A stretch of DNA of 64,000 nt from the IMG/VR virus record IMGVR_UViG_3300044632_002025; one strand, given 5' to 3'. The position numbers were made by a program, and so were the translations under genes. Shown piece by piece: positions 24,496 to 40,742 of the stretch (positions are counted from its first letter, which is position 1; every line of letters starts with the position of its first letter). A model generated the notes under the pieces. The model worked only from the letters and a program-made list of their open reading frames with translations. It had not been told where the DNA came from and searched no databases. The stretch comes from a virus.

Positions 24496-26169
24496 CTAGA
24501 TAAGCTGAAAGAAATTTGCCGCAACAAACTGTCCTACAGCTAACCCCATGTTAAAAGAATCAATACTAGCCTCCCGGACGTGAACTCCGCCATAAACACG
24601 GCTGAGGGCATCTTCCAATCCCGCTTCATAGAAGCTATCGAAATGACGAACGATACCTGGAAGTTCTTGGGAGACAGCACTAAACACATAGTTGTCACCA
24701 AAATACTCGGTCATCACTCCCGCAAATGCTCCCCCCATGGCAGAATGTCCTGACATATAATCTGGGAAAGGTGGGGAATTAACCCCCATTAATTCTGACA
24801 GCAAGGGTTTCCAATTGGGGTCGCCCACCGTATCAGCTATCCCGTCATTAGCCGCAAATCCTCCAGCAATTACGTCATCGGGGCGAGGTTGGAGTTCAGT
24901 GTATTTTTCTTTCCAAGCAACGATTACCGAATCTGCCAGCGCAGTATTTAAAGCGGCAAATAGGCTGGCATCTTCTTGTAAGGTATTGCCCTCACGCACG
25001 GCGATTTCTTGAGCAATTTGATTTAAGTGACCATAGGGACGGAAGGTATCAGCCCGGTCATAAGCCCAGAAAACAGCCATTTCTGTCTGGTCTGCATTGC
25101 GTAAAGTGGTAGTGAGAGCAGTGTTTTCCAATCCCCCATAGAGCCGGACTTCTTCAATTTCTTGGGCATACAATGTAGGATTTGTGTCAGGACGGCCATC
25201 AAGAGTCACATCAAGTTGATTGTCCGCAACAAACTGGTCAATGTCGCCAATTGTCCAAGTATCTACTCCCCCCCAATTCGCACCAACTGCTACCCCAGCA
25301 GTAGGGCCGGAGGTTTCTGGTCGCCAAACGTAGTCTCCCAGTGGCGGAGTGAAAGGTGTATTGTCGTTAGAACCATCATTAGCCCGTAAATTGATGCTCT
25401 GATTGGCCACTGAAATACCAAAATCAAACCCCTGGCTTTTCGCAATGGCACTGTCCTGAATCTCTGCCAGAGAATTAGATAATTGCTGTGAGAACAAACT
25501 ACTTTGTCCAGGTAATTGAGTAGAAAGAACTTGATAAGCCGCACCAACTACCGCCGCCTCTAACGAGGTATTTGTTGGTGCGTTCACATTTACAGCGTAG
25601 GAGGGATATAAAGTGTTGAAGGCATTGACCGTATCATAGACGGCAGTAGAAACCAACGCCATTAAGCGAGAACCTACTGTCGGTGCGACTCCCCGACCCG
25701 CTTTTCCTTCAGCTTGAATTGCATTTAAGGCGACCGCATTCCAGTCGATGACGGCGTTAGTATTGAGTCCCGATACTAATTTACTGGTGACATTATTGGT
25801 TTCCAGTTGTTCGGCAATTTGGTTATTTGCATCAACTTGAGCGATGAGAAAGTAAGCCCCTGGAGCGATGACTGAAGTATTGTTTTGATACGTTAAGTCC
25901 AAGGTAACTGACTGCCCAGCATTTAGGTTCAAGTTTGTGCTGACACTGGTGAGTAAGGCATCGTTACTGTCAATCTGACCGTCAGTAGAAATGTACAGGT
26001 TGACAGTAATGAGACCATTGGCAATCCCCGCTCGATTGGTGACAGAACTGAGACCTTTATTGGTAAGAATTACCTGTGCGCTTCCCTGAGACCCGAAGTC
26101 AACCGTAGTTGGTAAATTTATCGTGCCAAAACTGGCCACTAAATCTGGTAGATTAGGAAAGTTGAACAT
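24496..26169 (-). CDS. Vanadium-dependent haloperoxidase / PAP2 (acid phosphatase) superfamily protein with an N-terminal CARDB-like domain
   Basis: KYTELQPRP (Kx6RP), YMSGHS (PSGH-like) and SRVYGGVHVRE (SRx5H) are the three PAP2/V-haloperoxidase motifs. The N-terminal ~130 aa resemble CARDB (VTLDLTY...YFLIAQVDANNQIAE.ETNN). Confidence 0.75.
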   Translation of the reverse strand: MFNFPNLPDLVASFGTINLPTTVDFGSQGSAQVILTNKGLSSVTNRAGIANGLITVNLYISTDGQIDSNDALLTSVSTNLNLNAGQSVTLDLTYQNNTSVIAPGAYFLIAQVDANNQIAEQLETNNVTSKLVSGLNTNAVIDWNAVALNAIQAEGKAGRGVAPTVGSRLMALVSTAVYDTVNAFNTLYPSYAVNVNAPTNTSLEAAVVGAAYQVLSTQLPGQSSLFSQQLSNSLAEIQDSAIAKSQGFDFGISVANQSINLRANDGSNDNTPFTPPLGDYVWRPETSGPTAGVAVGANWGGVDTWTIGDIDQFVADNQLDVTLDGRPDTNPTLYAQEIEEVRLYGGLENTALTTTLRNADQTEMAVFWAYDRADTFRPYGHLNQIAQEIAVREGNTLQEDASLFAALNTALADSVIVAWKEKYTELQPRPDDVIAGGFAANDGIADTVGDPNWKPLLSELMGVNSPPFPDYMSGHSAMGGAFAGVMTEYFGDNYVFSAVSQELPGIVRHFDSFYEAGLEDALSRVYGGVHVREASIDSFNMGLAVGQFVAANFFQLI

Positions 26170-27196: not shown

Positions 27197-27577
27197 TCAC
27201 GGCTTTTGAAGGAACAAGCACCCTAGAACATTCGAGGGGTTATCCGAATCTCGGACGATTGCGCCAGGGGCCAAGCAGTCCGTTCGCCCTTGCTTACTAG
27301 CGGCCGCCGCCACTAGCCCCGATACAATGTAAAACGTCCCATCCACAGGGTCGGGTAATCCCACAATTTCCCCGTAGATGACAGCTTCTACAGGGATACC
27401 GTCAATAGGTTCCGATGGTTGGTTGTCCAGTTTAACACGGGGGAGAATCCCTGATGCTGGGATTTCTTTGTGAATCACGATTGATTCTTTGGTTCCCAAG
27501 AATTGTTTCTTAGCATCCTGAGTGATGCTAGTTCTGCCTAAAATTGTGATGTTGTGCGGGGTAGCGTTTATTAGCAT
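27197..27577 (-). CDS. Hypothetical protein
   Basis: 126-aa ORF with its own promoter (GGCTTGACA...TATAGT, 27600-27640) preceded by a 15-bp-arm hairpin. Confidence 0.6.
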   Translation of the reverse strand: MLINATPHNITILGRTSITQDAKKQFLGTKESIVIHKEIPASGILPRVKLDNQPSEPIDGIPVEAVIYGEIVGLPDPVDGTFYIVSGLVAAAASKQGRTDCLAPGAIVRDSDNPSNVLGCLFLQKP

Positions 27578-27687
27578 AATCTTAGCTCCGTTGGTATGTT
27601 ACTACTATATCAGGGTTTATTAGGTATTGTCAAGCCCTAATTAATAAGGATTTCTTATAGTTGAATGATAAGAAATCCTTATAGGGG

Positions 27688-27969
27688 TTAGTCTTTTTTG
27701 GCTAAATATTCCCGATAAAGTCTTTCCCGCTCTATCCAGAAACTGGACGGAGTTCCTAACACTAACTCTATCTGTAAAGCGGTATCGCTAGTAATCTCCG
27801 CTTTACCTTTTATGACCTCATTGATAGTCTCTCTTGGTCTGCCCATGCGTTGGGCGAGTTCCGATTGAGACATATTTCTTTCCTCTAGGATTTCAGCAAG
27901 GGTTTCACCTGGTGGAGAAATAAAATCCGGTACATACCTGTTCTCAATAGTATTAGTCATGGGTGTCAT
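27688..27969 (-). CDS. higA: HigA-family XRE-type HTH antitoxin-like protein (solitary)
   Basis: PPGETLAEILEERNMSQSELAQRMGRPRETINEVIKGKAEITSDTALQIELVLGTPSSFW follows the HigA/VapI pattern HPGEiLxE...GlsqxeLAxxLgvsrxtIneivnGkrxIt.dmAlrLaxxfGts.xfW. Confidence 0.8.
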   Translation of the reverse strand: MTPMTNTIENRYVPDFISPPGETLAEILEERNMSQSELAQRMGRPRETINEVIKGKAEITSDTALQIELVLGTPSSFWIERERLYREYLAKKD

Positions 27970-28047
27970 CTTAGAAGTTCCTCTTGTTTTGGTTTGAATC
28001 TGGTTAACCCGGTGAAGTGAGTGGGTTAACCCTTTGCTTATGTTTCC

Positions 28048-28112
28048 ATTATGCCTTACTTTTTAGGGTCTGTCAACCCTTTTTAAAGTGGACACTTTCT
28101 AAACTGTCCACT
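28048..28112 (-). promoter_or_regulatory. Palindrome-plus-promoter cassette (drives the higA-like gene)
   Basis: On the minus strand: AGTGGACA-N10-TGTCCACT (28087-28112), TTGACA (28071-28076), 17 nt, CATAAT (28048-28053). Confidence 0.6.
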
Positions 28113-28119
28113 GTCTCAC

Positions 28120-28269
28120 TTAGTAAGGTTTGCATTCACCACTGACCACTTCCAAGTCCGTACAGACTTTATTATTCGCCAGTGGTGATTCCTGAGAGAG
28201 ATTAACCACCCCCCACAGAATAAAAGGAGCCAATAAAGTAAATACTGCCAGTGTGTAAATTTTGTTCAT
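28120..28269 (-). CDS. Small hydrophobic-N-terminus peptide (49 aa)
   Basis: MNKIYTLAVFTLLAPFILWGVVNLSQESPLANNKVCTDLEVVSGECKPY. Own TTGACA-N17-CATAAT promoter upstream (about 28284-28312). Below the ORF track cutoff. Confidence 0.3.
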   Translation of the reverse strand: MNKIYTLAVFTLLAPFILWGVVNLSQESPLANNKVCTDLEVVSGECKPY

Positions 28270-28489
28270 TGCACATTTCCGTTCTATGTATCAATTATGC
28301 CTTACTTTTTAGGGTCTGTCAAGTAGGTCAATCATTAATCTTTCTCATAGGATTGATAATGGTAACTTATATAAGATTAGCTTAACCGTTAGATAGTTTT
28401 TACTTATATAAGTCTTACTTAAGAAATTGATAAGGCTACCTTATCTGAGGGCGGCCTTTAAGATTTATTTATTTTTGGTTTTATCTAGT

Positions 28490-28723
28490 AACCGTTGTAC
28501 CCGTTCTTGCATCTTTACCCACGCATAACTTGTATAGGCATAGGTGAACCTACCCACTCACGCACCTGCAATGGACTCCCCTACACGCACCTGCAATGAA
28601 CCTACCCACTCACACACCTGCAATAAACTCCTTTACCTGCAATAAACCCACCCCTGATTAAGATTGCAGGGGTGGGTTTATTGGTATGTATCCATTATAG
28701 CAAAGTTGGGTCTAGGTTGTCAA
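28490..28723 (-). ncRNA. Candidate noncoding transcription unit with ATTGCAGG repeats
   Basis: TTGACA (28718-28723), 18 nt, TATAAT (28694-28699). The transcript would start with a perfect 17-bp hairpin (28639-28655/28666-28682), then four ATTGCAGG-containing repeats and a conserved block. No ORF of 60 aa or more. Confidence 0.35.
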
Positions 28724-28777
28724 GCCCCAATCAATAAGGATTTCTTATCATTCAACCATAAGAAATCCTTATTGGGG

Positions 28778-29200
28778 TTAGGCTTTAGAGGTTAAAGCTT
28801 CAACTAATTGGGCTTTTTTCAAACTTCCATAGTTTTTAACTTTTTTCTTACGAGCCATAGCTTTCAATTCTCGGATATTTAGGTTTGTAAGGGTAAAATC
28901 AGGGACAGGTTCAACGGTGGCAGGGACAGGTTCAAGGGTAAAATCAGGAACAGGTTCAGGGGTAAAATCAGGGACAGGTTCAGGGGTAAAATCAGGGACA
29001 GGTTCAGGGGTAAAATCAGGGACAGGTTCAACGATGGTCGGAGGGGTTTCTACCCCTACAAAGGATTTATGGGGGGTTTTAGTAAAAACCTCGTCAATGA
29101 AGTGGATACAAGCTGATACCGATGCAAAGAACATTAGAACAGAGATACTAAAATGAACCGTTTGTCCTAGAATTAGATTAGCCAGTTGATAATTTGACAT
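28778..29200 (-). CDS. Membrane-anchored protein with (EPVPDFTP)5 linker and a C-terminal Rho_N/HeH-like motif
   Basis: N-terminal hydrophobic segment VHFSISVLMFFASVSACIHF, five tandem EPVPDFT(P/L) units (24-bp DNA repeats, about 28925-29040), and a tail LNIRELKAMARKKKVKNYGSLKKAQLVEAL like Rho_N/SAP/HeH motifs. Confidence 0.6.
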   Translation of the reverse strand: MSNYQLANLILGQTVHFSISVLMFFASVSACIHFIDEVFTKTPHKSFVGVETPPTIVEPVPDFTPEPVPDFTPEPVPDFTPEPVPDFTLEPVPATVEPVPDFTLTNLNIRELKAMARKKKVKNYGSLKKAQLVEALTSKA

Positions 29201-29277
29201 TCGATTTGTCCTCTTGTTTTGGTTTGAACTTGGTTAACCCGGTGAAGTGAGTGGGTTAACTTTTTGCCTATGTTACT

Positions 29278-29342
29278 ATTATGGCATTTTTCATCCAGTA
29301 TGTCAAGTCTTTTTGGAGTGGACAGTTTAGGAAGTGTCCACT
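29278..29342 (-). promoter_or_regulatory. Palindrome-plus-promoter cassette (drives 28778..29200)
   Basis: AGTGGACA-N10-TGTCCACT (29317-29342), TTGACA (29301-29306), 17 nt, CATAAT (29278-29283). Confidence 0.6.
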
Positions 29343-29351
29343 GTCCACTGT

Positions 29352-29657
29352 CTAAGCCTCTACTACCCTTCCATATTCTATAAACTGGAATACTTGTTCA
29401 TTTACAGGGTCATTCCAGTTCACAATCACATTCCCTGTTTTAAACTCCAAGTCTGCCATAAAGTCAACTAACTCAGATAAATCAGCATTATATTCTAACC
29501 ATTCCTTTATTCCTTCTTTAACATCCCCCTTCTGTTCTATTTTTTCGTCAATATCCAATAGCTCACTACTGTCTATCGTTAACTCTTGACACTGAAAAAA
29601 GGATTTATCGTACCGACCGTACCCAATTAATTTGATAGAGCTTTTAACGTACTTCAT
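29352..29657 (-). CDS. Accessory family F1 protein (paralog of 30164..30448 and 36887..37189)
   Basis: Shared MKY..VKS...EKI.Q.GDVKEGI.EWL.YN...DFMADLEFK.GNV.V.W.DP core. Confidence 0.65.
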   Translation of the reverse strand: MKYVKSSIKLIGYGRYDKSFFQCQELTIDSSELLDIDEKIEQKGDVKEGIKEWLEYNADLSELVDFMADLEFKTGNVIVNWNDPVNEQVFQFIEYGRVVEA

Positions 29658-29764
29658 GGTTTTTGGTTCCTGTTTGTTTTGGTTTATGTATCTACTATAG
29701 CAATATTTCTAGGGTCTGTCAAGTAGGTAAATCATTAATCTTTCTTATGGGATTGATAATGGTT

Positions 29765-30007
29765 ACTTATATAAGATTAACTTAACCGTTAGATAGTTTT
29801 TACTTATATAAGATTAGCTTATCCGTTAGATAGTTTTTACTTATATAAGATTAGCTTATCTGTTAGATAGTTTTTACTTATATAAGATTAGCTTATCCGT
29901 TAGATAGTTTTTACTTATATAAGATTAGCTTATCCGTTAGATAGTTTTTACTTATATAAGATTAGCTTATCCGTTAGATAGTTTTTACTTATATAAGATT
30001 AGCTTAT
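29765..30007. repeat. Tandem array, 37-bp unit, 6.6 copies
   Basis: ACTTATATAAGATTAGCTTATCCGTTAGATAGTTTTT starts at 29765, 29802, 29839, 29876, 29913, 29950 and 29987 (partial). Each unit holds the 10-bp palindrome CTTATATAAG. Confidence 0.95.
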
Positions 30008-30163
30008 GGGATGTACTCCCCTACACACCTGCAATGAACTAACCCCTACACACCTGCAATAAACTCCCCTACACATACCTGCAATGGACTAACCCTTGTC
30101 AACCCTTTTTGAGGTGGACAGTTTGGGAACTGTCCACTTTCTAAGCCCCTAGTTACGGGTTAT

Positions 30164-30448
30164 TTAGTAATCCCCATAGTAACAATCACAGAATTTATTC
30201 TCACTTTCAGGGTCTGTCCAGTCTATAACTACATTCCCAGAGCTAAATTCTAAGTCGGCCATAAAGTCAGTAATTCCAGAATAATCACCAGCATTATCTA
30301 TTATCCATTCTTTGACAACCCCCCTTACTTCATGGCCTGCTTTAACTTTTTCCTCAATTTCCATTAATTGATAGCTGTCTAGAGTAATTCCTAGACACTG
30401 TAATGGGTCATACCATCTGATTAAACTTTTAACTACTGTGTACTTCAT
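30164..30448 (-). CDS. Accessory family F1 protein
   Basis: MKYTVVKSLIR...VVKEWIIDNAGDYSGITDFMADLEFSSGNVVIDWTDPESE, paralogous to 29352 and 36887. Confidence 0.65.
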   Translation of the reverse strand: MKYTVVKSLIRWYDPLQCLGITLDSYQLMEIEEKVKAGHEVRGVVKEWIIDNAGDYSGITDFMADLEFSSGNVVIDWTDPESENKFCDCYYGDY

Positions 30449-30487
30449 TTTCGCTTTCCTCGTTGGTTTGTTTCGGTTTATGTTTCT

Positions 30488-30552
30488 ATTATGGCATTGT
30501 TCCTAACCCTTGTCAACCCTTTTGGGAGTGGACAGTTTAGAAAGTGTCCACT
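30488..30552 (-). promoter_or_regulatory. Palindrome-plus-promoter cassette (drives 30164..30448)
   Basis: AGTGGACA-N10-TGTCCACT (30527-30552), TTGACA (30511-30516), 17 nt, CATAAT (30488-30493). Confidence 0.6.
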
Positions 30553-30650
30553 GTCTGCTTTAAACTTTTTTCAAGAGTTAATGTATTAGGATAACTTATC
30601 AGGGTTATAATAGTTACTAATGGGTTAGGGTTAACTCTTGATTATTTTTT

Positions 30651-30992
30651 CTAGGCAGGTATAGCGTACCGTGTACGGTCTAGGCTTTCATGGGCATCGA
30701 TAGTATTGTTTAACCAGACCGTAACGACTGTCCAGTGTAGGGGTGTTTTGGCAGAAAGCACCATGACCAAGTCTTTGGTGCTTGAGTATTGAAAACGGTA
30801 AACATATTGGGGAACTTCTCTGGTCAAGTTTAATTCTATCAACTTACCGCTTGAGGGTTTTATGACAGTCGGTAAATCAATAGCACCGTCTGTCATGGCC
30901 TCTATCCGTGCATGGTTGCTGTACCGTAGGCTACGTTTAGCTATAGGAAACTGGAAATCTTTAGGAAACCCTATCAAATAGTGGTAAATCAT
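30651..30992 (-). CDS. Hypothetical protein
   Basis: 113-aa ORF with its own TTGACAGACCCTAGAAATATTGCTATAGT promoter. Confidence 0.55.
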   Translation of the reverse strand: MIYHYLIGFPKDFQFPIAKRSLRYSNHARIEAMTDGAIDLPTVIKPSSGKLIELNLTREVPQYVYRFQYSSTKDLVMVLSAKTPLHWTVVTVWLNNTIDAHESLDRTRYAIPA

Positions 30993-31303
30993 GGTTGGTA
31001 CTTATCAGGGGGGCTTGTTTTCTTTCATGTTACTACTATAGCAATATTTCTAGGGTCTGTCAAGTAGTTCATTCATTAATCTTTCTTATGGAATTGATAA
31101 TGGTAACTTATATAAGATTAGCTTATCAGAGTCGTCCATCATTACCCACGCATAACCCGTATAGGTGTAGGGGGGAGTTCACCTACACACACACACCTGC
31201 AATGAAAACACACCAACCAACGAGGTTAGGGTTTTCATTGTGGCAATATTTCTAGGGCCTGTCAAGGGTTAACCAGTTTAAATTTTGGTTAACCCTGAGT
31301 TAA

Positions 31304-31696
31304 CTATTCAAACCGGTATAAGTCAATATACCCTTTGGTTTTTAGAATTTCTACCAATGAATAAGGGAAATGATTAGCTAAGTCTATGAACCATAATCGG
31401 TCATAAATTATACTTAACTCACCATCATAATCACAGTAATAATCATCAGTCAGGAAAAAGTAATCTCCCATGCCCTCAACACGAGGAGATAACCATTCGT
31501 CGCATAACGCATCCTCTAACAAGTCATACCATAAGTAATCCGCAGGTTTATCGAAAAACTCTGGATTTTCCTCTAATTCTTGAAAAAATGCTAAAGTAGG
31601 GACTAGGTATATTACATCATCCAGTCTATAGATACTAATGTATTCCCCCTCACGCACTAGGTTGTCTTGGAATCTTTCGCTTAGTATGAATAACAT
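31304..31696 (-). CDS. Acidic hypothetical protein
   Basis: 130-aa ORF rich in D/E/Y/W. Own GGCTTGACA...TATAGT promoter (about 31725-31760). Confidence 0.6.
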   Translation of the reverse strand: MLFILSERFQDNLVREGEYISIYRLDDVIYLVPTLAFFQELEENPEFFDKPADYLWYDLLEDALCDEWLSPRVEGMGDYFFLTDDYYCDYDGELSIIYDRLWFIDLANHFPYSLVEILKTKGYIDLYRFE

Positions 31697-31870
31697 TTTT
31701 TGGCTCCCTTTTGGTTCGGTATGTTACTACTATATCAGGGTTTACTAGGTATTGTCAAGCCCTCAACTATTAGAATTTCTTATCAGTGGGTATAAGAGAA
31801 ACTTATCCACTCCGTCGTCCATCTTTACCCTCACATAACCCGTATAGGCATAGGTGAACCTACTTACTCA

Positions 31871-31940
31871 CATACCTGCAATGGACTCCCCTACACATAC
31901 CTGCAATGGACTCCCCTACACATACCTGCAATGGACTCCC
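31871..31940. repeat. Tandem 25-bp repeat, 2.8 copies (CATACCTGCAATGGACTCCCCTACA)
   Basis: Units at 31871, 31896 and 31921 (partial). Member of the CCTGCAAT/ATTGCAGG repeat family. Confidence 0.9.
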
Positions 31941-31980
31941 TAATCCTATTGGTTGGGTTAGGGAGTATTGCAGGGGTTAA

Positions 31981-32358
31981 TTATCCTTGATGTACACAGT
32001 AGTTAAAATCATATTCAAACAATAACAGATTGACTCGCCGGAAAAGAGAATCGTAACGGTCTGAACGAAGATGTAGGGAGTAGGATGTATAGTAGTATTG
32101 GTCTGGGTCTGGGTCTTCTGGGTCTTCACTGGAAAACCAATTGCTTAAGTCGTTAGAACTGTTAGCGACAATCCCTAAACTGTGCGCTAATTTGATTAGA
32201 TTATCCAAGCCTATTTCCGATATTTCTTGCCAGTAATCCTCAGAAGAATAATCAGATTCGTAGTGAGTACCCTTGAAATAATACCCTTGTTCCAAATATC
32301 CCCAATCGAATGCTGACTCTGGTGTAACATACTGATAGACGATTCTAAATTGAGACAT
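31981..32358 (-). CDS. Acidic hypothetical protein
   Basis: 125-aa ORF rich in D/E/Y/S, with a promoter containing the GGGTTAAC element at 32412-32447. Confidence 0.6.
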   Translation of the reverse strand: MSQFRIVYQYVTPESAFDWGYLEQGYYFKGTHYESDYSSEDYWQEISEIGLDNLIKLAHSLGIVANSSNDLSNWFSSEDPEDPDPDQYYYTSYSLHLRSDRYDSLFRRVNLLLFEYDFNYCVHQG

Positions 32359-32460
32359 AATCGGTTTCCTTTTTGGTTGGTTGTTACTATTATAGCAGTT
32401 TTTTTCTAGACTGTCAAGGGTTAACTTGGTTAAATTTTGGTTAACCCTGAGTTGAGTTTA

Positions 32461-32563
32461 GTCTAAGGAATCTTCATCCTCATCTTCATCTTCATCCTGC
32501 TGGTCGGTTATTTCACGGGCTATTTCCTCACAGGCATACCAGACCTCTAACATATCAGCCCGT
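32461..32563 (-). pseudogene. 3' remnant of a family F4 gene (truncated copy of 32966..33319)
   Basis: 32461-32545 aligns with 32966-33057 (acidic tail and ...YACEEIAREITDQQ). After an internal deletion of about 30 bp the match stops and abuts the stop codon of 32564..32872. Confidence 0.7.
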
Positions 32564-32872
32564 TTAAAATTTAAATCTTCCGTAGGGGCTTAGATAGAAC
32601 TCTGTAATATCCTCTTGGTTAGGTGGGAATGCCTCTACCCATTCACTTATAGCATCTATCAATAAATCTCGGTCGCCTGTCATTCGGGATAAATTCTGAT
32701 AGAATACTTTGTCATCCCAGTAGAACAAGTGTACGTCTCCCAGTGGGTTTTCTAAGTCGGAAATTTCTAATCCATCTTCCGCTAGTAACTGCTCACAGGT
32801 TCGGATTTGAGCAAAGATTTCTTGTAATTCACTGGTTGACAGTGTTTCTAGATACGAGAGGTAAGTAAACAT
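32564..32872 (-). CDS. Accessory family F2 protein (paralog of 33421..33723)
   Basis: MFTYLSYLETLSTSELQEIFA...CEQLLAEDGLEISDLENPLGD...LIDAISEWVEAFPPN, shared almost residue for residue with 33421..33723. Confidence 0.7.
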   Translation of the reverse strand: MFTYLSYLETLSTSELQEIFAQIRTCEQLLAEDGLEISDLENPLGDVHLFYWDDKVFYQNLSRMTGDRDLLIDAISEWVEAFPPNQEDITEFYLSPYGRFKF

Positions 32873-32965
32873 AATCGGTTTCCTTGTAATGTCACTATTA
32901 CAGCAGTTTTTTTCGGGACTGTCAAGGGTTAACTTGGTTAAATTTTGGTTAACCCTGAGTTAAGG

Positions 32966-33319
32966 TTAGTCTAAGGAATCTTCATCTTCATCCTCATATT
33001 CATCTTCATCCTGCTGGTCGGTTATTTCACGGGCTATTTCCTCACAGGCATACCAGACCATGAGGTTATAAAACGAATCTAGACTTTCTAACATATCAGC
33101 CCGGCTAAAAGAGGAAATCATTTTAGCCACGTTGGTATAGCCCAATTGTTTCGCTTGTTCAACTGCATATTTCCAGATTGAAACCCCGTACTTTTCCCAT
33201 AACTTAACACAGTCCGATGTATAGGATATATAGGGAAAACCCATGTCTGCTCCGTAACTTGCAATATCTTTAGCATACTCGTAAAGATTTTCCTCAAACC
33301 ATTCTTTAAATTCTCTCAT
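32966..33319 (-). CDS. Accessory family F4 protein with an acidic tail
   Basis: Start moved to ATG 33319 (MREFKEWFEE) because the track start is the -35 TTGACA. The C-terminus is DQQDEDEYEDEDEDSLD. Confidence 0.65.
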   Translation of the reverse strand: MREFKEWFEENLYEYAKDIASYGADMGFPYISYTSDCVKLWEKYGVSIWKYAVEQAKQLGYTNVAKMISSFSRADMLESLDSFYNLMVWYACEEIAREITDQQDEDEYEDEDEDSLD

Positions 33320-33420
33320 TTTTTTTTTCCTCGTTGGTTGGTATGTGTCCATTATGGCATTTTTTCGGGGGTCTGTCAAGGGTTAACTTGGTTAAATTTT
33401 GGTTAACCCTTGATTAAGTT

Positions 33421-33723
33421 TTAGCACTTAAATGTTCCGTAGGGTGTTAAAAAGAACTCGGCAGAACCCTTTCGGTTAGGTGGAAATGCCTCTACCCAAT
33501 CACTTATAGCATCTATCAAAAAATCTCGGTCGTCTTCCATTGTGGATAAATTCTGATAGAATATTTTTTCATCGTAGTACAAGTCGTCCCCCAGTGGGTT
33601 TTCTAAGTCGGAAATTTCTAATCCATCTTCTGCTAGTAATTGCTCACAAGTTAAGTTTTCAGCAAAGATTTCTTGTAATTTACTGGTTGACAGTGTTTCT
33701 AGATACCGGAGGTAAGTAGTCAT
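33421..33723 (-). CDS. Accessory family F2 protein
   Basis: Paralog of 32564..32872. Confidence 0.7.
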   Translation of the reverse strand: MTTYLRYLETLSTSKLQEIFAENLTCEQLLAEDGLEISDLENPLGDDLYYDEKIFYQNLSTMEDDRDFLIDAISDWVEAFPPNRKGSAEFFLTPYGTFKC

Positions 33724-33830
33724 AATCGGTTTCCTTTTTGGTTGGTTGTTACTATTATGGCATTGTTTAAGGGGTAAAGTCTAGTGGACAGTTAAGGAAC
33801 TGTCACACTCCCTACTTAACTAGGTTAAGT

Positions 33831-34187
33831 TTATGCAGGTCTTTTATAGCCGTTTTGAAGCGGTGTGTCAAGGGCTAACCTGATTAAGTCTATGTGTGTT
33901 TTTCTGGTTTCTAGGAACTCCGGACGGTTACGGGTTATCACCTTGAGTTGATACCCGTAGTGTTCCTCTAGGTATTTTTTATCCCATGAATAATCATAAA
34001 AAGTGGCAGGGAAAGTATTGTTAATAACCTCACAGGGGTCACATGAACCATGCTCCCCTACATATTCCCATGATAGACATTTATAGGGGTTATCGCAACT
34101 GACGATTTCTGGAAAAATGGCGATAATACGCCAAGTGTATTTTTCCCATTTACGGAAGATTACTTTTGTGGGGTTTTCAGTGGTCAT
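33831..34187 (-). CDS. Accessory family F3 protein (paralog of 34285..34611)
   Basis: Shared KVIFRKW.KY...IIAIFPEIVS.DNPY.CLSW.YVG.HGSCDP...GYQLKVITRNR.EFLE. Confidence 0.7.
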   Translation of the reverse strand: MTTENPTKVIFRKWEKYTWRIIAIFPEIVSCDNPYKCLSWEYVGEHGSCDPCEVINNTFPATFYDYSWDKKYLEEHYGYQLKVITRNRPEFLETRKTHIDLIRLALDTPLQNGYKRPA

Positions 34188-34284
34188 AATTGGTTTCCTC
34201 GTGATGTTTTCATTATAGCACTTTTCGGGGGACTGTCAAGGGTTAACTTGGTTAAATTTTGGTTAACCCGTGATTAAGTTGAGG

Positions 34285-34611
34285 TTAGACTAGAAACTGT
34301 GCCATGCGAGCTATTTCAGCTTCTCTGATTTCTAGGAACTCCCGACGGTTTCGGGTTATTACCTTGAGTTGATAGCCGTATTGTTTTTCTAGGACTTCCT
34401 TATCCCAAGCATATTCATCGGGACTTGCCGGTACAGTATCGCTAATGACCCAATGGGGGTCACATGAACCATGCCCTCCTACATATACCCATGATAGACA
34501 TTCATAAGGGTTATCCGTACTGACGATTTCTGGAAAAATGGCGATAATACTATTTGAGTATTTTACCCATTTACGGAAGATTACTTTTGTCGGGGAGTTG
34601 TCAGTAGTCAT
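34285..34611 (-). CDS. Accessory family F3 protein
   Basis: Paralog of 33831..34187. Confidence 0.7.
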   Translation of the reverse strand: MTTDNSPTKVIFRKWVKYSNSIIAIFPEIVSTDNPYECLSWVYVGGHGSCDPHWVISDTVPASPDEYAWDKEVLEKQYGYQLKVITRNRREFLEIREAEIARMAQFLV

Positions 34612-34737
34612 AATGTTTCCTCTTTGGTTGGTATGTTACTATTATGGCATTGTCTAAGGGTAAAGTCTAGTGGACAGTTAAGGAACTGTCACACTCCCTA
34701 CTTAACTAGGTTGGATTGAGTTTAACTTAGTTGAACT

Positions 34738-35130
34738 CTATTCTAAGTAAATCCATCCACGAATGGCCATAGAGTCGCACTCACCAAAATTTTTTGAAGC
34801 TTCAGAAAGTCGGTCTAAGACCGCCTTATCACAACCTTTCTCATCCCAGAACCCAGAACCATAACGATTACGGTTTAGATAGAAGTTATGACCAACGTGG
34901 TCTTCGCTAAACCCAGACTCTAGAAAGATATTAATATCCTCTTGGTTTTCGCTTACGAATCGTTCTACATCATCCCGTGCGGACAGTAGTGATTTTTTGG
35001 TGAAACCGTGACCCATTTTAGGGAAATCCTCTCCATTTTCCCCCTGACAACACCATTCTGCGGCCGTTAAATAACCACTTATAAAGGGGAAAACATCATC
35101 AGGGACGTGGTTAGGGTTAAATTGGGGCAT
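34738..35130 (-). CDS. Hypothetical protein
   Basis: Start set at ATG 35130 (MPQFNPNHV) behind an AGGAG RBS. Contains GHNFYLNRNRYGSGFWDE, a motif I recall from uncharacterised phage/plasmid proteins. Confidence 0.55.
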   Translation of the reverse strand: MPQFNPNHVPDDVFPFISGYLTAAEWCCQGENGEDFPKMGHGFTKKSLLSARDDVERFVSENQEDINIFLESGFSEDHVGHNFYLNRNRYGSGFWDEKGCDKAVLDRLSEASKNFGECDSMAIRGWIYLE

Positions 35131-35161
35131 ATTTTTGGCTCCTGTGCTTGGTTTTAAGGGT

Positions 35162-35434
35162 TTAAGTCTGTGTGTCAAGATTAAATTTCTTGCCAGAGTA
35201 GGTTTTTTTGCAATCATTACACTGGAACACGGAGTAAGGTTTTCCGTTTACATCCTTTTTAGTGGCTCGTTTCCGAACATTAAATGAACCGCAATGGGGG
35301 CATCGTTTTCCGACTAGGTATTCATAAAAACCTTTAGATTTTTTTAACCATTGTTCATCGGAAATAATTCCTTCTCCCCAATCTGATAAATCGGGCAAAA
35401 TTTTGGACAGAATTGGTAATCTTGAATGAGTCAT
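35162..35434 (-). CDS. Zinc-ribbon protein
   Basis: CPHCGS...CNDCKK: two CxxC pairs in a 90-aa basic protein. Confidence 0.55.
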   Translation of the reverse strand: MTHSRLPILSKILPDLSDWGEGIISDEQWLKKSKGFYEYLVGKRCPHCGSFNVRKRATKKDVNGKPYSVFQCNDCKKTYSGKKFNLDTQT

Positions 35435-35554
35435 ACGTTTTAATTGGTAAGGGTTAAATGGGGTTAGATTGGGTTAGGAAGATTCACTACTTGTCAAGGG
35501 TTAACTAGGTTAAATTTTGGTTAACCCTTGATTAAGGTTAGGACAGGGTTAATT

Positions 35555-36172
35555 CTAATTGGATACCGTCTTCCCAACGAGTAACATTAGTGCATCAAGT
35601 AAATCCGACCGTTGTGGTGTGCTTAAATCTTCAAATCCGAAACTACCATGTAAACCCTGATATACTTCACATATACTAACTGTTTCATCGTTTAGATAGT
35701 CTAAGAATGGATTTATGACCTTTAGTAAGTCTTCTGGGGATACCAATAGGTCTATTTCATGACGATACTTATAGGCTATTTTGTCCTCTAATTCTGGTAA
35801 TATCTCCAAAATTTCCTTAGCACACTCATTACATCCTGTCTCGTTCCAATATTCCATCCATTTTTCATTTAGTATTTCACCGTACACTTGTTCGTCTAGC
35901 AGGTAATAAACGGTCTTTGTCTTCTCAATAAGGTTGTCAATCTCTTCCACTAGGGGACTATCCTTTTTTAACAGGATGGCTGTAAACCGTCCGAAAAACC
36001 CACGAAAACTAGCTTCTATACAGTCCTCATTGTTAATAAAACGGGATAGCACTCGATAGTTCGCCATATCCATTAAATCCGACGCATCGGACTGTGAATA
36101 GACAACATAATATCCTTCGTAGTTTATGCCAAAGAAGTTATCTTGGCATAATTTCAGGTGTTTCGCTTTCAT
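35555..36172 (-). CDS. Hypothetical protein
   Basis: 205-aa ORF, the largest in the island. No motif recognised. Confidence 0.6.
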   Translation of the reverse strand: MKAKHLKLCQDNFFGINYEGYYVVYSQSDASDLMDMANYRVLSRFINNEDCIEASFRGFFGRFTAILLKKDSPLVEEIDNLIEKTKTVYYLLDEQVYGEILNEKWMEYWNETGCNECAKEILEILPELEDKIAYKYRHEIDLLVSPEDLLKVINPFLDYLNDETVSICEVYQGLHGSFGFEDLSTPQRSDLLDALMLLVGKTVSN

Positions 36173-36190
36173 TTTTTCCTTCCTTGATTG

Positions 36191-36240
36191 GTTTAGATTG
36201 GTTTAGATTGGGTTAGATAGGGTTAGATTGGGTTAGATTG
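36191..36240. repeat. Five tandem decamers (G(G/T)TTAGATTG)
   Basis: They fill the gap between the stop of 36243..36515 and the start of 35555..36172. Confidence 0.85.
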
Positions 36241-36242
36241 GG

Positions 36243-36515
36243 CTAGTAGGTATGAAATCCCTTGCTATCGAAGCAAAATAACTCCATATAAGTTCGAGAA
36301 ATTTTAGAATGAACAAAAGCCTTAATCTTTATTTGATTTTCTGGCATCCAAGCTTCTAAAGTAGTATAATATGACTTTAAGAAGCTTTTTAGTTGTGCAT
36401 TATTCTTGACTTCTAAATCAAAGCTTAATCGATTTTGAATCTCGCCAGTTGTATCCTTAATTAAGCGATTTTCAGAGTTGCGAACTTCAAAACAAATAAC
36501 AAATTTTTCCGACAT
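36243..36515 (-). CDS. Hypothetical protein
   Basis: 90-aa ORF. No promoter of its own, so probably co-transcribed with 36573..36776. Confidence 0.55.
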   Translation of the reverse strand: MSEKFVICFEVRNSENRLIKDTTGEIQNRLSFDLEVKNNAQLKSFLKSYYTTLEAWMPENQIKIKAFVHSKISRTYMELFCFDSKGFHTY

Positions 36516-36572
36516 TTTGCCCTCTTTTGTGTTTCTACTGTTTACCGATAACTGATAACTGATGACTGATAA

Positions 36573-36776
36573 TTAATCCTCTAATTCCCAATCTACATAA
36601 TCGAGATTATCACGCCAGTCAAGCAGATTGGGCATCTCATTCTCATCCCCAAAACTAAGCGTGATAGCCGGGTAGATGTTTTCAAGCAATTCTAAGGCTT
36701 GTTTTTTGCTAGAAGCGGGCAAGGTTACTTCCAATTCAATGCGAAGTATTCCAGTAAATTCTTTAAGTTTTGTCAT
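36573..36776 (-). CDS. Small acidic hypothetical protein
   Basis: Start moved to ATG 36776 (MTKLKEFTG) because the track start is the -35 box. Confidence 0.5.
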   Translation of the reverse strand: MTKLKEFTGILRIELEVTLPASSKKQALELLENIYPAITLSFGDENEMPNLLDWRDNLDYVDWELED

Positions 36777-36795
36777 TGTTTCCTCGTTGGTATCC

Positions 36796-36860
36796 ATTAT
36801 GGCATTTTTCATCTGGTCTGTCAAGTCTTTTTGGAGTGGACAGTTTAGGAAGTGTCCACT
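36796..36860 (-). promoter_or_regulatory. Palindrome-plus-promoter cassette
   Basis: AGTGGACA-N10-TGTCCACT (36835-36860), TTGACA (36819-36824), 17 nt, CATAAT (36796-36801). Confidence 0.6.
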
Positions 36861-36886
36861 GTCTAAGCCCTTAGCTACGGGTTATA

Positions 36887-37189
36887 TTAGTCTTCATCGG
36901 AGTAACAATCCCTGAATTTATATTCACTTTCAGGGTCTGTCCAGTCTATAACTACATTCTCCGATTTAATTTCCAAGTCTGCCATAAAATCAGTTGGCAT
37001 TCCCTGAAAATCCCCAGTATTATACAGTAACCATTCCTCTATTCCTTCTTTAACATCTCCATTCTGTTTTATTTTTTCCTCAATGCCATCTAATTGATAG
37101 CTGTCTAGGAAAATCTCTTGACACTGTTCTTGACCGTACCAACCGTACCCGATTAGTCTTACGAAGCTTTTAACTACTATGTACTTCAT
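36887..37189 (-). CDS. Accessory family F1 protein
   Basis: Start moved to ATG 37189 (MKYIVVKSF). Carries the DFMADLEIKSENVVIDWTDPESE core. Confidence 0.65.
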   Translation of the reverse strand: MKYIVVKSFVRLIGYGWYGQEQCQEIFLDSYQLDGIEEKIKQNGDVKEGIEEWLLYNTGDFQGMPTDFMADLEIKSENVVIDWTDPESEYKFRDCYSDED

Positions 37190-37226
37190 GATTTTTGGTT
37201 TCCTGTTTGTTTTGGTTGATGTGTCT

Positions 37227-37291
37227 ATTATGGCATTGTTTTTCTGGACTGTCAACCTTTTTTGGGGTGGACAGTTTAGGAAGTGTCCACT
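37227..37291 (-). promoter_or_regulatory. Palindrome-plus-promoter cassette
   Basis: GGTGGACA-N10-TGTCCACT (37266-37291), TTGACA (37250-37255), 17 nt, CATAAT (37227-37232). Confidence 0.6.
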
Positions 37292-37517
37292 AGGGGTTGA
37301 ATTGGGGATAACTGTCTCTCAAACGTCCCCTGTACTCTTGACAGTATTCACTAAAGTCAAAACTGTTACTTCCCATATAGATTGTATGCACCAATTGAGT
37401 ACCGTGCAAATGGTACACCCTGCGACTGAAAAATCCTACTCCCCGTTCTATATATCGGGGGAAAATTTCCCCATTGGGTTTAGGGAGATTACCTATAAAT
37501 ATTTTGCTCTCGTCCAC
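37290..37517 (-). CDS. Hypothetical protein
   Basis: 75-aa ORF with a GTG start behind ACAGGAG. Confidence 0.45.
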   Translation of the reverse strand: MDESKIFIGNLPKPNGEIFPRYIERGVGFFSRRVYHLHGTQLVHTIYMGSNSFDFSEYCQEYRGRLRDSYPQFNP

Positions 37518-37550
37518 TTGTTTGACTCCTGTTTTTCGGCTTATGTGTCT

Positions 37551-37615
37551 ATTATGGCATTGTTCATCTGGTCTGTCAAGTCTTTTTGGAGTGGACAGTT
37601 TAGGAAGTGTCCACT
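37551..37615 (-). promoter_or_regulatory. Palindrome-plus-promoter cassette
   Basis: AGTGGACA-N10-TGTCCACT (37590-37615), TTGACA (37574-37579), 17 nt, CATAAT (37551-37556). Confidence 0.6.
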
Positions 37616-38171
37616 AGGGGTTTTACTAGGGATACTTCACATTGTTTTGATTGGTTCCCACTTGTTTGACTCCTGTTTTTCTTTCGATGTCACTACTATA
37701 GCAGTGTTTTCTATGGTAGTGCAACCCCTAGTGGACACTTTGATAATTGGCACACTGGGTAATATTTACCCCTCTTCCCTATGTTTAGTACAAGTGTACC
37801 AAAGGATGGGCTTCATCGGCTGACGTGAAAGCCTTATTTGTACCTGCAATTCATTTACCACAGGTTAAGATTTGGTTATGGTTGGCGGGAAAGCCTTATT
37901 CGTGCCTGCAATGTTTTTACACTTAACCCAGTCTTAACCTCTCTTAACCCAGTCTTAACCCAGTCTTAACCCATCTTCCCTATGTCTAGTACAAGTGTAC
38001 CAAAGGGTGGGCTTCATCGGCTGACGTGAGACTCAGATTTGTGCCTGCAATGTTTTTTACGCCCTAAACTCCCCTTTAACACTTGGGCTAGTACAAGTGT
38101 ACTAGGGGTGGAGGAGGTGTCCGCCCAAACTATATTGGACAAGATAATTATTCCTAGCTAGGATAGAAAAT

Positions 38172-39798: not shown

Positions 39799-39859
39799 TT
39801 GGGTCTAACGGGGTCTAACGGGGTCTGACCCATCCTCAACCCTACCTGACCCCTCCTGA

Positions 39860-39880
39860 CCCCTTTGGAAGGGGTTTTTT
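39860..39880 (+). terminator. Rho-independent terminator
   Basis: CCCCTT-tgg-AAGGGG followed by T6. Confidence 0.7.
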
Positions 39881-39952
39881 ATTGTCAACCCCCAGTCTGC
39901 CCCGGTTAAGCTGGGGGGTGGTTCAAATGTACTAGACAAAGATGAACTGGGG

Positions 39953-40108
39953 GGGGTAGGGGGGGGTTCTCTTTTTTCAGGGCGACCCTTCCTATTCCAT
40001 CCCCCCCAAGTTTGACAGGGCTTAACTGGGTTTGACCCCTAGACCCCCTTTTACCTTGGGTATGAGTATTTATACCTATCCCTAAAGACATAGTACGGGG
40101 TTTGACCC
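39953..40108. repeat. Direct repeat of about 156 bp, copy a
   Basis: GGGGTAGGGGGG...TTTTCAGGGCGACCC...GGTATGAGTATTTATACC...CATAGTACGGGGTTTGACCC recurs at 40291-40448. Confidence 0.85.
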
Positions 40109-40290
40109 GACCAGACCCCGTTTAACCACTTCCACCCAACCTGACCCAGTTAGCTAAGGGTGGAAGTGGGGGGGTTCTTGGGTTTTTTTATGGAGACCTC
40201 CTTGATTCCACTTGGTCGGATTGGGTTGAATCTGGTTTGACCCTGCCAGCCCCAGCCTAAGCCAACCAGCCCCAGCCATTCCTTACTAAG

Positions 40291-40670: not shown

Positions 40671-40742
40671 CCCAGTCTGGCCATGTTCAACCCAGTCTGG
40701 TCATGTTCAACCCCGTCTGGCCATGCTTAACCCAGTCTGGTA
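40671..40742. repeat. Tandem 20-bp repeat, 3.5 copies (CCCAGTCTGGCCATGTTCAA)
   Basis: Units at 40671, 40691, 40711 and 40731 (partial). Confidence 0.9.

Follow-up and report, generated by a model that had tools for sequence, protein, structure and literature searches.

Between 27.2 and 37.8 kb of a 64,000-nucleotide (nt) stretch of viral DNA (IMG/VR record IMGVR_UViG_3300044632_002025, hereafter the window), all credible open reading frames (ORFs) lie on the minus strand and are short (22 ORFs of 31–205 amino acids, aa), which raises the question of what this gene island is, how it is expressed, and what has shaped it. An initial annotation, made by inspection of the sequence, described it as a series of monocistronic cassettes for small acidic proteins and proposed it as a candidate anti-defense or host-takeover locus. 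The orientation and size of the genes were as described there, and so was the body of the island, whereas its last cassette (27197–27577) falls just outside the start that had been assigned. The explanation that we favor, and consider likely when taken as a whole, is that the window derives from a Mic1-like cyanosiphophage of roughly 100 kb and that the island is its early-gene hyperplastic region, where host RNA polymerase would transcribe small cassettes from near-perfect promoters and where the modules carrying these promoters would serve as portable homology for cassette shuffling.

The island proteins are more acidic and richer in aromatic residues than the products of the other 48 window genes (median isoelectric point, pI, 4.56 vs. 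6.55, p = 0.0009; aromatic residues 13.4% vs. 10.1%, p = 0.002), in agreement with the earlier description. The four paralogous families recognized by eye, F1–F4, were recovered by blastp, with identities of 44–59% in F1, 74% in F2, and 71% in F3, and with F4 accompanied by a 31-aa remnant; the singletons number about 12 instead of the nine or so counted before. All three proposed decayed units were found, namely, a mini-ORF (37626–37661), a promoter stump (30086–30137), and the F4 remnant (32458–32553).

Among the products of the window are an SF1 helicase, a DNA polymerase whose exonuclease domain is of the mitochondrial type, a ribonucleotide reductase, and tail proteins. The polymerase shares 60.7% identity with the DNA polymerase gamma of the Microcystis siphophage Mic1, with the next relatives at ~30%. 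At the nucleotide level, the island matched none of 50,697 phage records; at the protein level, 12 island proteins searched together against the same records matched Mic1 alone, and most island products have homologs in the Mic1 group only. The island adjoins nrdB in the opposite orientation, the same placing as that of gp50–gp60 in Mic1, where small genes of opposite orientation are found on the flanks of nrdB (gp50–gp60 and gp62–gp73). Eight island families have Mic1 homologs in this nrdB-side block (tblastn): F1 (gp50), the zinc-ribbon protein (gp52), F3 (gp53 and gp54), g36243 (gp55), g36573 (gp56 and gp58, up to 73% identity), g35555 (gp59), the g31981 family (gp60, gp64, and gp72), and the Rho_N protein g28778 (gp63). 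Judging from this homology and from synteny with gp50–gp73, the island is the ortholog of the published Mic1 early cluster. In Mic1, gp49–gp73, except gp61 and gp67, constitute the early phase of transcription, 0.5–2 h, as determined by RNA-seq (PMC11237433), and the early timing proposed for the island genes is backed indirectly, because of their homology with these transcripts.

The promoters of the island are as numerous as had been claimed. The strict pattern TTGAC[AT]-N16–18-[TCG]A[TC]A[AG]T has 16 minus-strand matches, every one of them between 27633 and 37579, no plus-strand match, and one weak match elsewhere in the 64 kb, compared with 1.08 ± 1.05 matches in shuffled sequence. Together with four further promoters that have one deviating hexamer (32897–32925, 33754–33783, 34641–34669, and 37695–37724), these account for the approximately 20 sigma70-type promoters read initially. 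A consensus scan of the region identified three 12/12 and twelve 11/12 matches, and of 17 minus-strand sites with a strict or near-strict match, 15 have an extended −10 element (TGn). On the coding strand, each intergenic region runs through the same layout: stop codon, palindrome, −35, spacer, −10, A/C-rich leader, and then, in all modules, AGGAAA or GGAG followed by ATG. In modules with the palindrome termed type A, an A-rich tract (CCAAAAAGAC) lies immediately 5′ of TTGACA; the type B palindrome abuts the −35 element, and the A-tract is absent.

Right after DNA entry, host RNA polymerase with its primary sigma factor would fire about 20 near-perfect promoters built on one plan, i.e., −35 TTGACA, a 17-bp spacer, and a TGn-extended −10 of the form (C/T)ATAAT, with the A-tract added just 5′ of the −35 in type A modules and with a short A/C-rich leader, a Shine–Dalgarno sequence, and a small ORF on the 3′ side. 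Since each such cassette combines a promoter, a leader, a Shine–Dalgarno sequence, and a small ORF, most genes would form their own transcription units. The description of the island as monocistronic, with a private promoter for each gene, holds for most genes but not for the block 36773–34738, where g36243, g35555, g35162, and g34738 are without an intact promoter of their own. This block is probably one five-gene operon driven from the promoter P36824, so that the conserved core from g36573 to g34738 would be read off a single promoter. The −10 element of the promoter before g35162 is overwritten by decamer repeats, and it is intact in another strain of the same phage, strain B (contig L010, position 9256).

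A palindrome precedes 15 of the 18 promoters, and the other three follow units of a 37-nt AT-rich repeat. Four palindrome types were distinguished. Type A, GTGGACA-N10-TGTCCAC, has 8 matches in the window (7 of them exact, all in the island) vs. 0.17 expected, and type B, GGTTAACC-N13-GTTAACC, occupies 8 sites, each matching on both strands (16 matches vs. 0.26 expected). Type C is a 40-bp palindrome in two copies, and type D is a variant of type A found before a weak −35. A pattern search for ATTGCAGGT-N15–17-ATTGCAGGT in viral contigs returned mostly chance matches and, in contig L030, an unrelated coding repeat. Type A is palindromic across most of its loop (AGTGGACA.TTT...AAA.TGTCCACT); moreover, the element at 28087–28112, before the helix-turn-helix (HTH) gene, reproduces the element at 30527–30552, before F1b, as an exact reverse complement that includes the loop, and has probably been flipped through recombination inside its own arms. 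In Mic1, the orientation is that seen at 28087. The regions upstream of the window promoters fold with a mean energy of −10.0 kcal/mol vs. −5.9 kcal/mol for a background of random 45-mers (p = 5e-5). Since an 11-bp type A-like stem, flanked by A6 and T6, forms the canonical bidirectional intrinsic terminator after a 557-aa gene outside the island (24390–24440, minus strand), the island hairpins may derive from terminators.

Type B sites lie at 31267–31294, 32419–32446, 32927–32954, 33381–33408, 34241–34268, and 35499–35526, among others, and lend themselves to a reading as three direct repeats of TTAACC with spacings of 11 and 9 bp (GTTAACCA-AAA-TTTAACCA-A-GTTAACCC). This arrangement resembles the cyanobacterial Pho box, PyTTAAPyPy(T/A) with an 11-bp periodicity, and phosphate-responsive early promoters would be of interest if the likeness is real.

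Direct evidence on the dynamics of the island comes from contigs of the same phage population, which were recovered from several lake metagenomes by exact-protein and pattern look-ups. Three to four haplotypes are readable, i.e., W (the window), B (contigs L010/L052), and C (L051 joined with L014, and L054), with backbones that are 86–99% identical and flanks that are 95–99% identical. They differ in the order of the cassettes, in the number of F1 copies (1, 2, 3, or at least 4), and in having single or double F2, F3, and F4. The order of transcription in W is g37290, F1c, g36573, g36243, g35555, the zinc-ribbon gene, g34738, F3b, F3a, F2b, F4, and F2a, followed by the F4 remnant, g31981, g31304, g30651, F1b, F1a, g28778, g28120, the HTH gene, and g27197. 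Strain B (L010) has a single copy each of F1, F2, F3, and F4, with F1a and F1b absent (L052 and L053 carry two F1), places g31304 before g31981 and g28120 before g28778, and has a KTSC-domain gene in place of the HTH gene and g27197, behind the same type C module; this gene (77 aa, L010 4140–4373, minus strand) was assigned by eye from its sequence and the annotation of Mic1 gp68/gp71. The module before g31304 is of type B in strain B and type C-like in W. In strain C, F3 is single, F1a stands directly 3′ of g31981, an NC element (a non-coding repeat element described below) with an R-type promoter, i.e., one that follows 37-nt units, is joined to F1a, and an extra F1 copy, F1d, is inserted between F1c and g36573. 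Two type A modules enclose F1d, at a point where W has a single one, and these two modules have the same 3′ untranslated region (UTR), palindrome, and promoter and differ in the leader alone. Across the haplotypes, orthologous ORFs are essentially full length, with variation at the C-terminus or in repeat number in F4, g28778, and g35555.

A type B module with TTGACA-N17-TAAAAT also occurs behind nrdA on the plus strand, at a distance of 16 nt from the stop codon (21750–21808), and precedes a 73-aa ORF (~21838–22059, plus strand), and the module is therefore portable. The modules, which are about 90 bp long, contain the stop codon, palindrome, promoter, and leader, and belong to a few sequence types repeated along the island, serve as portable homology, and unequal or ectopic exchange between them would duplicate, delete, reorder, or replace whole cassettes without breaking ORFs. 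At the level of contig sequence, the comparison shows such apparent module-mediated shuffling of cassettes, the recombination step being the one backed by comparative data. The rapid cassette turnover proposed earlier, and the variability that a comparison of the locus among relatives had been expected to reveal, are thus directly visible as differences in order, copy number, and presence, with junctions in the modules.

Several observations weigh against this explanation or parts of it. The hairpin statistics of W are non-independent, because duplication links the module copies to one another, and the values, taken singly, are modest; a U-tract follows none of the island hairpins. The upstream regions of Mic1 are no more structured than the background (p = 0.79), and 12 Mic1 modules keep the motif TGCCAGTTTAGAAAGTGTCAC without hairpin potential; therefore, the group as a whole has not conserved a function as terminator or stem-loop. 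The hairpin or palindrome initially seen before most promoters is thus borne out as a palindrome but not as a conserved hairpin. Selection against broken genes would, by itself, enrich junctions in intergenic regions. The early timing of the island rests on homology with Mic1, and F1–F4 are tied to no specific target.

All features of the island are on the minus strand and are given here in the direction of transcription, each module with the gene that it is predicted to drive. The first module combines an imperfect palindrome (GTGTGCCA..TGTCCAC) with TTGCAC-N18-TATAGT (37695–37756) and is followed by the 11-codon mini-ORF mentioned above, a remnant of a g37290-like cassette. Three type A modules with TTGACA-N17-CATAAT come next: the first (37551–37614) drives g37290 (37290–37517, 75 aa, GTG start), the second (37227–37290) drives F1c (36887–37189, 100 aa), and the third (36796–36859) drives g36573 (36573–36773, 66 aa), which is better conserved than any other early protein (73% identity with Mic1 gp56), and probably the four downstream genes as well. 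The latter are g36243 (36243–36515, 90 aa), g35555 (35555–36172, 205 aa, acidic), the zinc-ribbon gene g35162 (35162–35434, 90 aa), and g34738 (34738–35130, 130 aa; phrog_1915), with the decayed type B module that retains TTGACA before g35162 (35481–35526). A type D module with TAGACT-N17-CATAAT (34641–34695) precedes F3b (34285–34611, 108 aa), a type B module with a 12/12 consensus promoter (34212–34268) precedes F3a (33831–34187, 118 aa), and a second type D module, with TAGACT-N18-CATAAT and an extended −10 (33754–33809), precedes F2b (33421–33723, 100 aa). Two further type B modules drive F4 (TTGACA-N17-CATAAT, 33351–33408) and F2a (TTGACA-N17-TGTAAT, 32897–32954); F4 (32966–33319, 117 aa) consists of a DUF7222 domain (Pfam PF23864, E = 3.6e-9) and an acidic tail, and F2a (32564–32872, 102 aa) is followed by the remnant, which corresponds to the C-terminal end of F4.

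In the second half of the island, a type B module with a 12/12 consensus promoter (32389–32446) drives g31981 (31981–32358, 125 aa; weak match to PDB 6L2W, E = 0.096), with the non-coding element NC4, containing three 25-nt repeats, directly 3′ of its stop codon (31811–31980). A degenerate type C-like module with TTGACA-N18-TATAGT (31729–31810) precedes g31304 (31304–31696, 130 aa), which has a pI of 4.05, a net charge of −20, and 21% aromatic residues and is an ORFan found in four clusters. No ORF follows the type B module with TTGACA-N17-CACAAT (31237–31294), from whose promoter, P31265, the single-repeat element NC3 (31117–31236) would be transcribed. The next genes are g30651 (30651–30992, 113 aa, basic; phrog_24108, E = 3e-18), driven by a type R module with TTGACA-N17-TATAGT (31035–31116), and F1b (30164–30448, 94 aa), driven by a type A module with TTGACA-N17-CATAAT (30488–30551). 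The promoter stump, a type A palindrome and TTGACA without a −10, is fused to NC2, which has three 25-nt G-rich repeats (30018–30095), and a tandem array (29763–30007) leads to a type R module with TTGACA-N17-TATAGT (29694–29762) and F1a (29352–29657, 101 aa). A type A module with TTGACA-N17-CATAAT (29278–29341) drives g28778 (28778–29200, 140 aa), an analog of Mic1 gp63 with an N-terminal transmembrane helix, PEPVPDFT repeats encoded by 24-nt coding repeats, and a C-terminal Rho_N/HeH domain (Pfam Rho_N, E = 1e-7). The type C module C2, with the 40-bp palindrome and a 12/12 consensus promoter, P28723 (28694–28773), is followed by no ORF and would transcribe NC1 (28420–28693). A type R module with 37-nt units containing CTTATATAAG and TTGACA-N17-CATAAT (28294–28412) drives g28120 (28120–28269), a 49-aa hydrophobic peptide with an ortholog in L010. 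The type A module with the flipped loop and TTGACA-N17-CATAAT (28048–28111) drives g27688 (27688–27969, 93 aa), a HigA-family/Xre HTH protein, and module C1, with the 40-bp palindrome and TTGACA-N18-TATAGT (27604–27682), drives the last cassette, g27197 (27197–27577, 126 aa).

For this last cassette, the one with a predicted function, the best-supported role is that of a phage ring nuclease: g27197 is probably Crn4b-like, a candidate anti-type-III-CRISPR enzyme, as suggested by model and structure-database matches and by conserved motifs. It matches the PADLOC model PDLC01138 (“Unk_01,” a small protein sometimes fused to CARF) with E = 7.6e-17 and, as a single sequence against PDB, Crn4b (9R7B, E = 2.1e-6), Crn4a (9SMA, E = 0.011), and 9QS9 (E = 0.015); the profile of a 24-member family also matches 9R7B (E = 1.4e-4). 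Chi et al. (2025), who gave Unk01 the name Crn4, showed that it cleaves cA3, cA4, and cA6, an activity that depends on conserved Thr/His and Arg residues (T13/H15/R112 in Crn4a and H17/R103 in Crn4b; PMC12830947). In g27197, NATPH (T6, H8) and VRD (R109) are invariant in the 24 family members and align with the catalytic LTPH and VRD of Crn4b. Assignment to DUF1874/AcrIII-1 was rejected, with no Pfam match even at E = 10. The family comprises 176 clusters at ≥60% identity, including homologs (60–63% identity) in unrelated myophages of Microcystis (Ma-LMM01 and MaMV) and members that lie beside a Cro-like HTH gene in the early regions of further lake phage contigs. It is missing from Mic1 and from four contigs that span its junction (L009–L012), and a scan of genome contigs found the family on phage contigs only, mis-binned into Lake Mendota metagenome-assembled genomes. 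Microcystis hosts of MaMV phages possess type III-B CRISPR systems with Csx1/CARF effectors (PMC11855584), and Mic1 infection induces a type III-B system (PMC11237433). In such hosts, g27197 would cleave the cyclic oligoadenylates of the type III system and thereby disarm the CARF effectors.

Domain searches assigned little to the remaining products. Searches of Pfam, PHROGs, and NCBIfam gave generic or unknown-function matches only, save for the HTH, Rho_N, DUF7222, and zinc-ribbon domains; a concatenate of 12 island proteins gave linker or acidic-tail noise only against PDB sequences; Rfam gave zero matches (island at a permissive threshold, window at the gathering threshold), and a search for tRNA genes found none. 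The HTH domain of g27688 is of the HigA type, as recognized initially (TIGR02607, 54.9 bits against a cutoff of 47.7; HTH_3, E = 7.4e-11), but a HigBA toxin–antitoxin reading was rejected because no HigB/RelE-type toxin gene is adjacent; its neighbors, the hydrophobic peptide and the Crn4-like gene, have promoters of their own and a toxin domain in neither. The homologs of g30651 (in Streptomyces phages and Xanthomonas jumbo phages) and of g34738 (in enterobacterial, Caulobacter, and Brevundimonas phages) are annotated as hypothetical. F1 has five close clusters only, and a profile search of 1.84 billion representatives yielded 105 small relatives. An AlphaFold model of F1 built from 71 relatives reached a predicted local distance difference test score (pLDDT) of 92, compared with a poor first model from 8 sequences (pLDDT 57). 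Foldseek found no PDB match for it (best E = 0.07, TM-score ≤ 0.33) and a single viral match in BFVD, A0A4Y5TR32 (105 aa, 36% identical). F1 is thus, as far as the model goes, a widespread small family of variable copy number with a predicted fold that has no PDB match, and in this form is new here. F1–F4 and the singletons are presumed host-takeover or counter-defense factors.

The NC elements are the other unusual constituent of the island. Each starts with a hairpin (CCTGCAAT paired with ATTGCAGG), followed by one to four tandem 25-nt G-rich units with the core ATTGCAGGTGTGTG and then by a conserved block of ~60 nt (GGTTCACCTATGCCTATACGGGTTATG..GGGTAAAGATG) and GATAAG..CTTAT hairpins. NC1 comprises a GC-rich hairpin of 16 bp that ends in a U-rich tail, approximately four of the 25-nt repeats, the 60-nt block, and the GATAAG hairpin; two copies stand behind the consensus promoters P28723 and P31265 without an ORF, and one copy is located in a 3′ UTR. 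These promoter-driven non-coding repeat elements are new here. Mini-ORFs within them were dismissed, as their peptides are not conserved between copies. The array at 29763–30007 consists of 6.6 copies of the 37-nt unit with 98% identity and 77% A+T, including the palindrome CTTATATAAG, and single units precede the promoters at 28322, 29722, and 31063; Ma-LMM01 has an array of 6.7 copies of a 42-bp unit near its Crn4-like gene. A reading of the 25-nt and 37-nt repeats as CRISPR-repeat mimics (Racr) was rejected, as they have no spacer structure and bear no known likeness to cyanobacterial repeat ends.

Three alternatives to the favored explanation bear on different parts of the island. The palindromes may be operator or activator sites of a dimeric phage or host protein that times the early promoters, for example by shutting them off, in which case their repetition would reflect regulation and not recombination, and no RNA stem-loops would be formed. 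This we regard as unlikely. It would agree with the near-complete symmetry of type A, which works in either orientation, with the retention of the motif TGCCAGTTTAGAAAGTGTCAC in Mic1 modules unable to form a hairpin, with the TTAACC direct repeats of type B, which resemble cyanobacterial Pho boxes, and with the absence of U-tracts. However, at least four unrelated palindromes share one slot; their centers, at approximately −48 to −64 from the −35 element, show no helical phasing, and positional activator sites were rejected on this ground. The sole island HTH gene is missing in strain B, which retains types A, B, and C, the distant relative L067 has other GC-rich hairpins at the same position, and a stem like that of type A is a component of the canonical terminator at 24390–24440. 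Since four unrelated palindromes stand at unphased distances and the HTH gene is missing in strain B, the palindromes most likely act as RNA or DNA stem-loops that attenuate read-through or stabilize 3′ ends.

The other two alternatives concern the purpose of the island. A dedicated anti-defense island, in which most cassettes, including F1–F4, would inhibit Microcystis defenses (as DNA mimics, signal sponges, or anti-CRISPR proteins) and the changes in copy number would be an adaptive “accordion,” is possible but doubtful. The predicted ring nuclease is located beside an HTH gene, as in acr–aca pairs, the small acidic ORFans are under early promoters, their presence, absence, and copy number vary by strain, and Microcystis is rich in defense systems. 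Yet g27197 alone matches any anti-defense or defense-related model, the confident F1 model is unlike any solved mimic or sponge, and acidity alone is weak evidence; general takeover fits better with the conserved core g36573–g34738, which is syntenic with Mic1. The anti-defense function initially proposed for the island gains one concrete predicted case in g27197, which had gone unrecognized, and none among the acidic paralogs. Their proposed kinship with DNA mimics of the Ocr/ArdA type, with which they share net charge alone, is not backed: the F1 model has no PDB match, and the other acidic families are ORFans and have no PDB sequence match. Least probable, and in our opinion very unlikely, is that the NC spacers (promoter, G-rich 25-nt repeats, and AT-rich 37-nt array) are the functional heart of the island, as transcription-primed (R-loop) replication origins or decoy RNAs, with the cassettes being incidental. 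Two consensus promoters (P28723 and P31265) lead into no ORF, the G content of the repeats on the transcribed strand is 40–44%, with the AT-rich array coming next, the 14-mer core ATTGCAGGTGTGTG is found again in Mic1 behind a terminator of the early region (position 63101), and the folds are more stable than those of shuffled controls (z = −2.95 for NC1 and −3.85 for NC4). On the other hand, the number of repeats varies from 1 to 4 between strains and copies, Rfam contains no match, a strong terminator-like hairpin follows P28723 after ~15 nt, and no inflection of GC skew was seen beyond that explained by the strand switch. The reading of the island as an early-gene region with module-mediated cassette shuffling thus remains the preferred one. 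A bolder extension of it, improbable when all its parts are taken together, would make F1 a new factor of counter-defense or takeover, its dosage being adjusted by amplification via the modules (a phage “gene accordion,” cf. poxvirus), the G-rich ATTGCAGGTGTGTG RNAs decoy or priming RNAs, and PeSL-type shuffling (see below) a general and convergent process in tailed phages; F1 is cast as an amplifiable factor because of its confident unmatched fold, its ~100 divergent small relatives, and its 1 to at least 4 copies among near-identical strains.

Other repeats and genes of the window deserve mention. Short tandem repeats of 7–20 nt occur between genes (GATTGGGTTA, ATCAGTT, CTTAACCCAGT, and others), at 36186–36246, 35451–35477, 36547–36572 (the ATCAGTT heptamers), 37922–37977, 39801–39864, and 40669–40740. 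In Mic1, ATCAGTT heptamers of this region are shared with the Microcystis genome (PMC7156551). Upstream of the island, ~1.8 kb (39800–41600) contain no ORF of 62 aa or more and several tandem repeats; the Mic1 counterpart is a 3-kb unannotated gap (53.9–56.9 kb) before gp50. The motif TAGTACA / GTACACTTGTAC recurs in non-coding DNA outside the early promoters (22065–22135 on the plus strand; 24330–24400 and 37780–38110 on the minus strand), including a 31-nt repeat in 2.2 copies just upstream of the gene at 22149, and may be the promoter motif of another temporal class. The 557-aa protein (24496–26169, minus strand) has CARDB, vanadium-chloroperoxidase N-terminal, and PAP2 domains, which is unusual in a phage; its gene is missing from the related contigs L010–L012, where a repeat of ~200 nt is found in its place. 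A ~200-nt sequence occurs twice in the window in opposite orientations (11824–12045, plus strand, and 48140–48302, minus strand), one copy immediately preceding the DNA polymerase gene and extending into its start, and two more copies are present in L010.

Three systems related to the island were already known, namely, the Mic1 early cluster, the PeSL (promoter-early stem-loop) cassettes of T4-type phages, and the Crn4 family, including rare phage copies. New here, in addition to F1 and the NC elements, are the haplotype-level evidence of module-mediated shuffling in a cyanosiphophage and, as a predicted function, the Microcystis-phage clade of Crn4b-like genes in the form of strain-variable early cassettes. 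Common to unrelated Microcystis phages and variable between strains, the latter offers a testable anti-CRISPR candidate whose predicted function bears on the persistence of blooms despite abundant type III CRISPR systems. F1–F4, g31304, and g36573 form a shortlist for host-takeover and counter-defense screening, in a host that is not yet genetically tractable.

g27197 resembles the solved Crn4 proteins (PDB 9R7B, Crn4b; 9SMA, Crn4a) in its model match, its size, the N-terminal TPH, and the C-terminal VRD; like the phage and plasmid orthologs of Crn4b, it resides on a mobile element and not in a CRISPR locus, and rare phage copies had been noted by the authors of the Crn4 study (PMC12830947). 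It is ~30% identical to the solved Crn4b, and its clade, unlike the solved Crn4, is tight (≥60% identity over 176 clusters) and here confined to phage contigs; the viral ring nuclease AcrIII-1/Crn2 is an analog. With the Mic1 early cluster (gp49–gp73; MN013189; PMC7156551, PMC11237433), the island shares the position beside nrdB, the orientation relative to the replication genes, the families listed above (with F3 and g36573 homologs twice and the g31981 family three times), the ATCAGTT heptamers, and promoter-containing repeats, which the Mic1 genome paper described as motifs repeated 10 and 8 times in the early region (PMC7156551). Modules of the same kind are found in Mic1, with TGTGACA-N10-TGTCACA or a degenerate form followed by TTGACA or TGGACA-N17-CATAAT, and also in the relatives L065 and L067. 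The differences are considerable: protein identity is only 35–73% with no nucleotide similarity, cassette order and copy numbers differ, Mic1 is without the Crn4-like gene, F2, F4, g31304, g30651, and g34738, the window is without the TnpB-like gp49 at the corresponding position, and palindrome types B and C and the NC elements, present in the window, were not seen in Mic1.

The PeSL cassettes are known from T4-type myophages, where they occupy hyperplastic regions (Arbiol et al., 2010, PMC2839356; Comeau et al., 2014, PMC4122927). As in these cassettes, a stop codon, a putative stem-loop, a sigma70-consensus promoter with an A-rich tract, a Shine–Dalgarno sequence, and a start codon are combined in one module, and the promoters are strong by consensus (16 strict sites vs. 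1.08 expected, three of 12/12, mostly with an extended −10), with CCAAAAAGAC in type A and AGGAAA/GGAG then ATG throughout. Small ORFans are flanked by the modules, and these are concentrated in a plastic region, with a single strict promoter lying outside the island, and close relatives differ in that whole cassettes bounded by modules are inserted, deleted, or replaced, as seen in the haplotypes. A stem-loop upstream of the −35 is one of the five described PeSL subclasses, and the two-module junction at F1d has the deletion/insertion geometry proposed for PeSL (PMC2839356). By contrast, the island belongs to an unrelated lineage, with DNA polymerase gamma and siphovirus tail genes, and its module sequences are unrelated; its stems are not polyG/polyC, are weaker, and are without U-tracts, its modules are of several types, and Mic1 does not keep the hairpin potential. 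The likeness is read here from sequence. The PeSL layout suggested initially thus holds for the order of putative stem-loop, consensus early promoter, and small ORFan but not for sequence homology or a conserved stem-loop, and the relation is best seen as analogy, not homology, with all testable features matching except homology and a conserved stable stem-loop. Population-level sequence evidence accordingly points to promoter/stem-loop module shuffling in a freshwater cyanobacterial siphophage far from T4-like phages; if this is true, PeSL-type shuffling would be a convergent mechanism of tailed phages and not a T4-like peculiarity.

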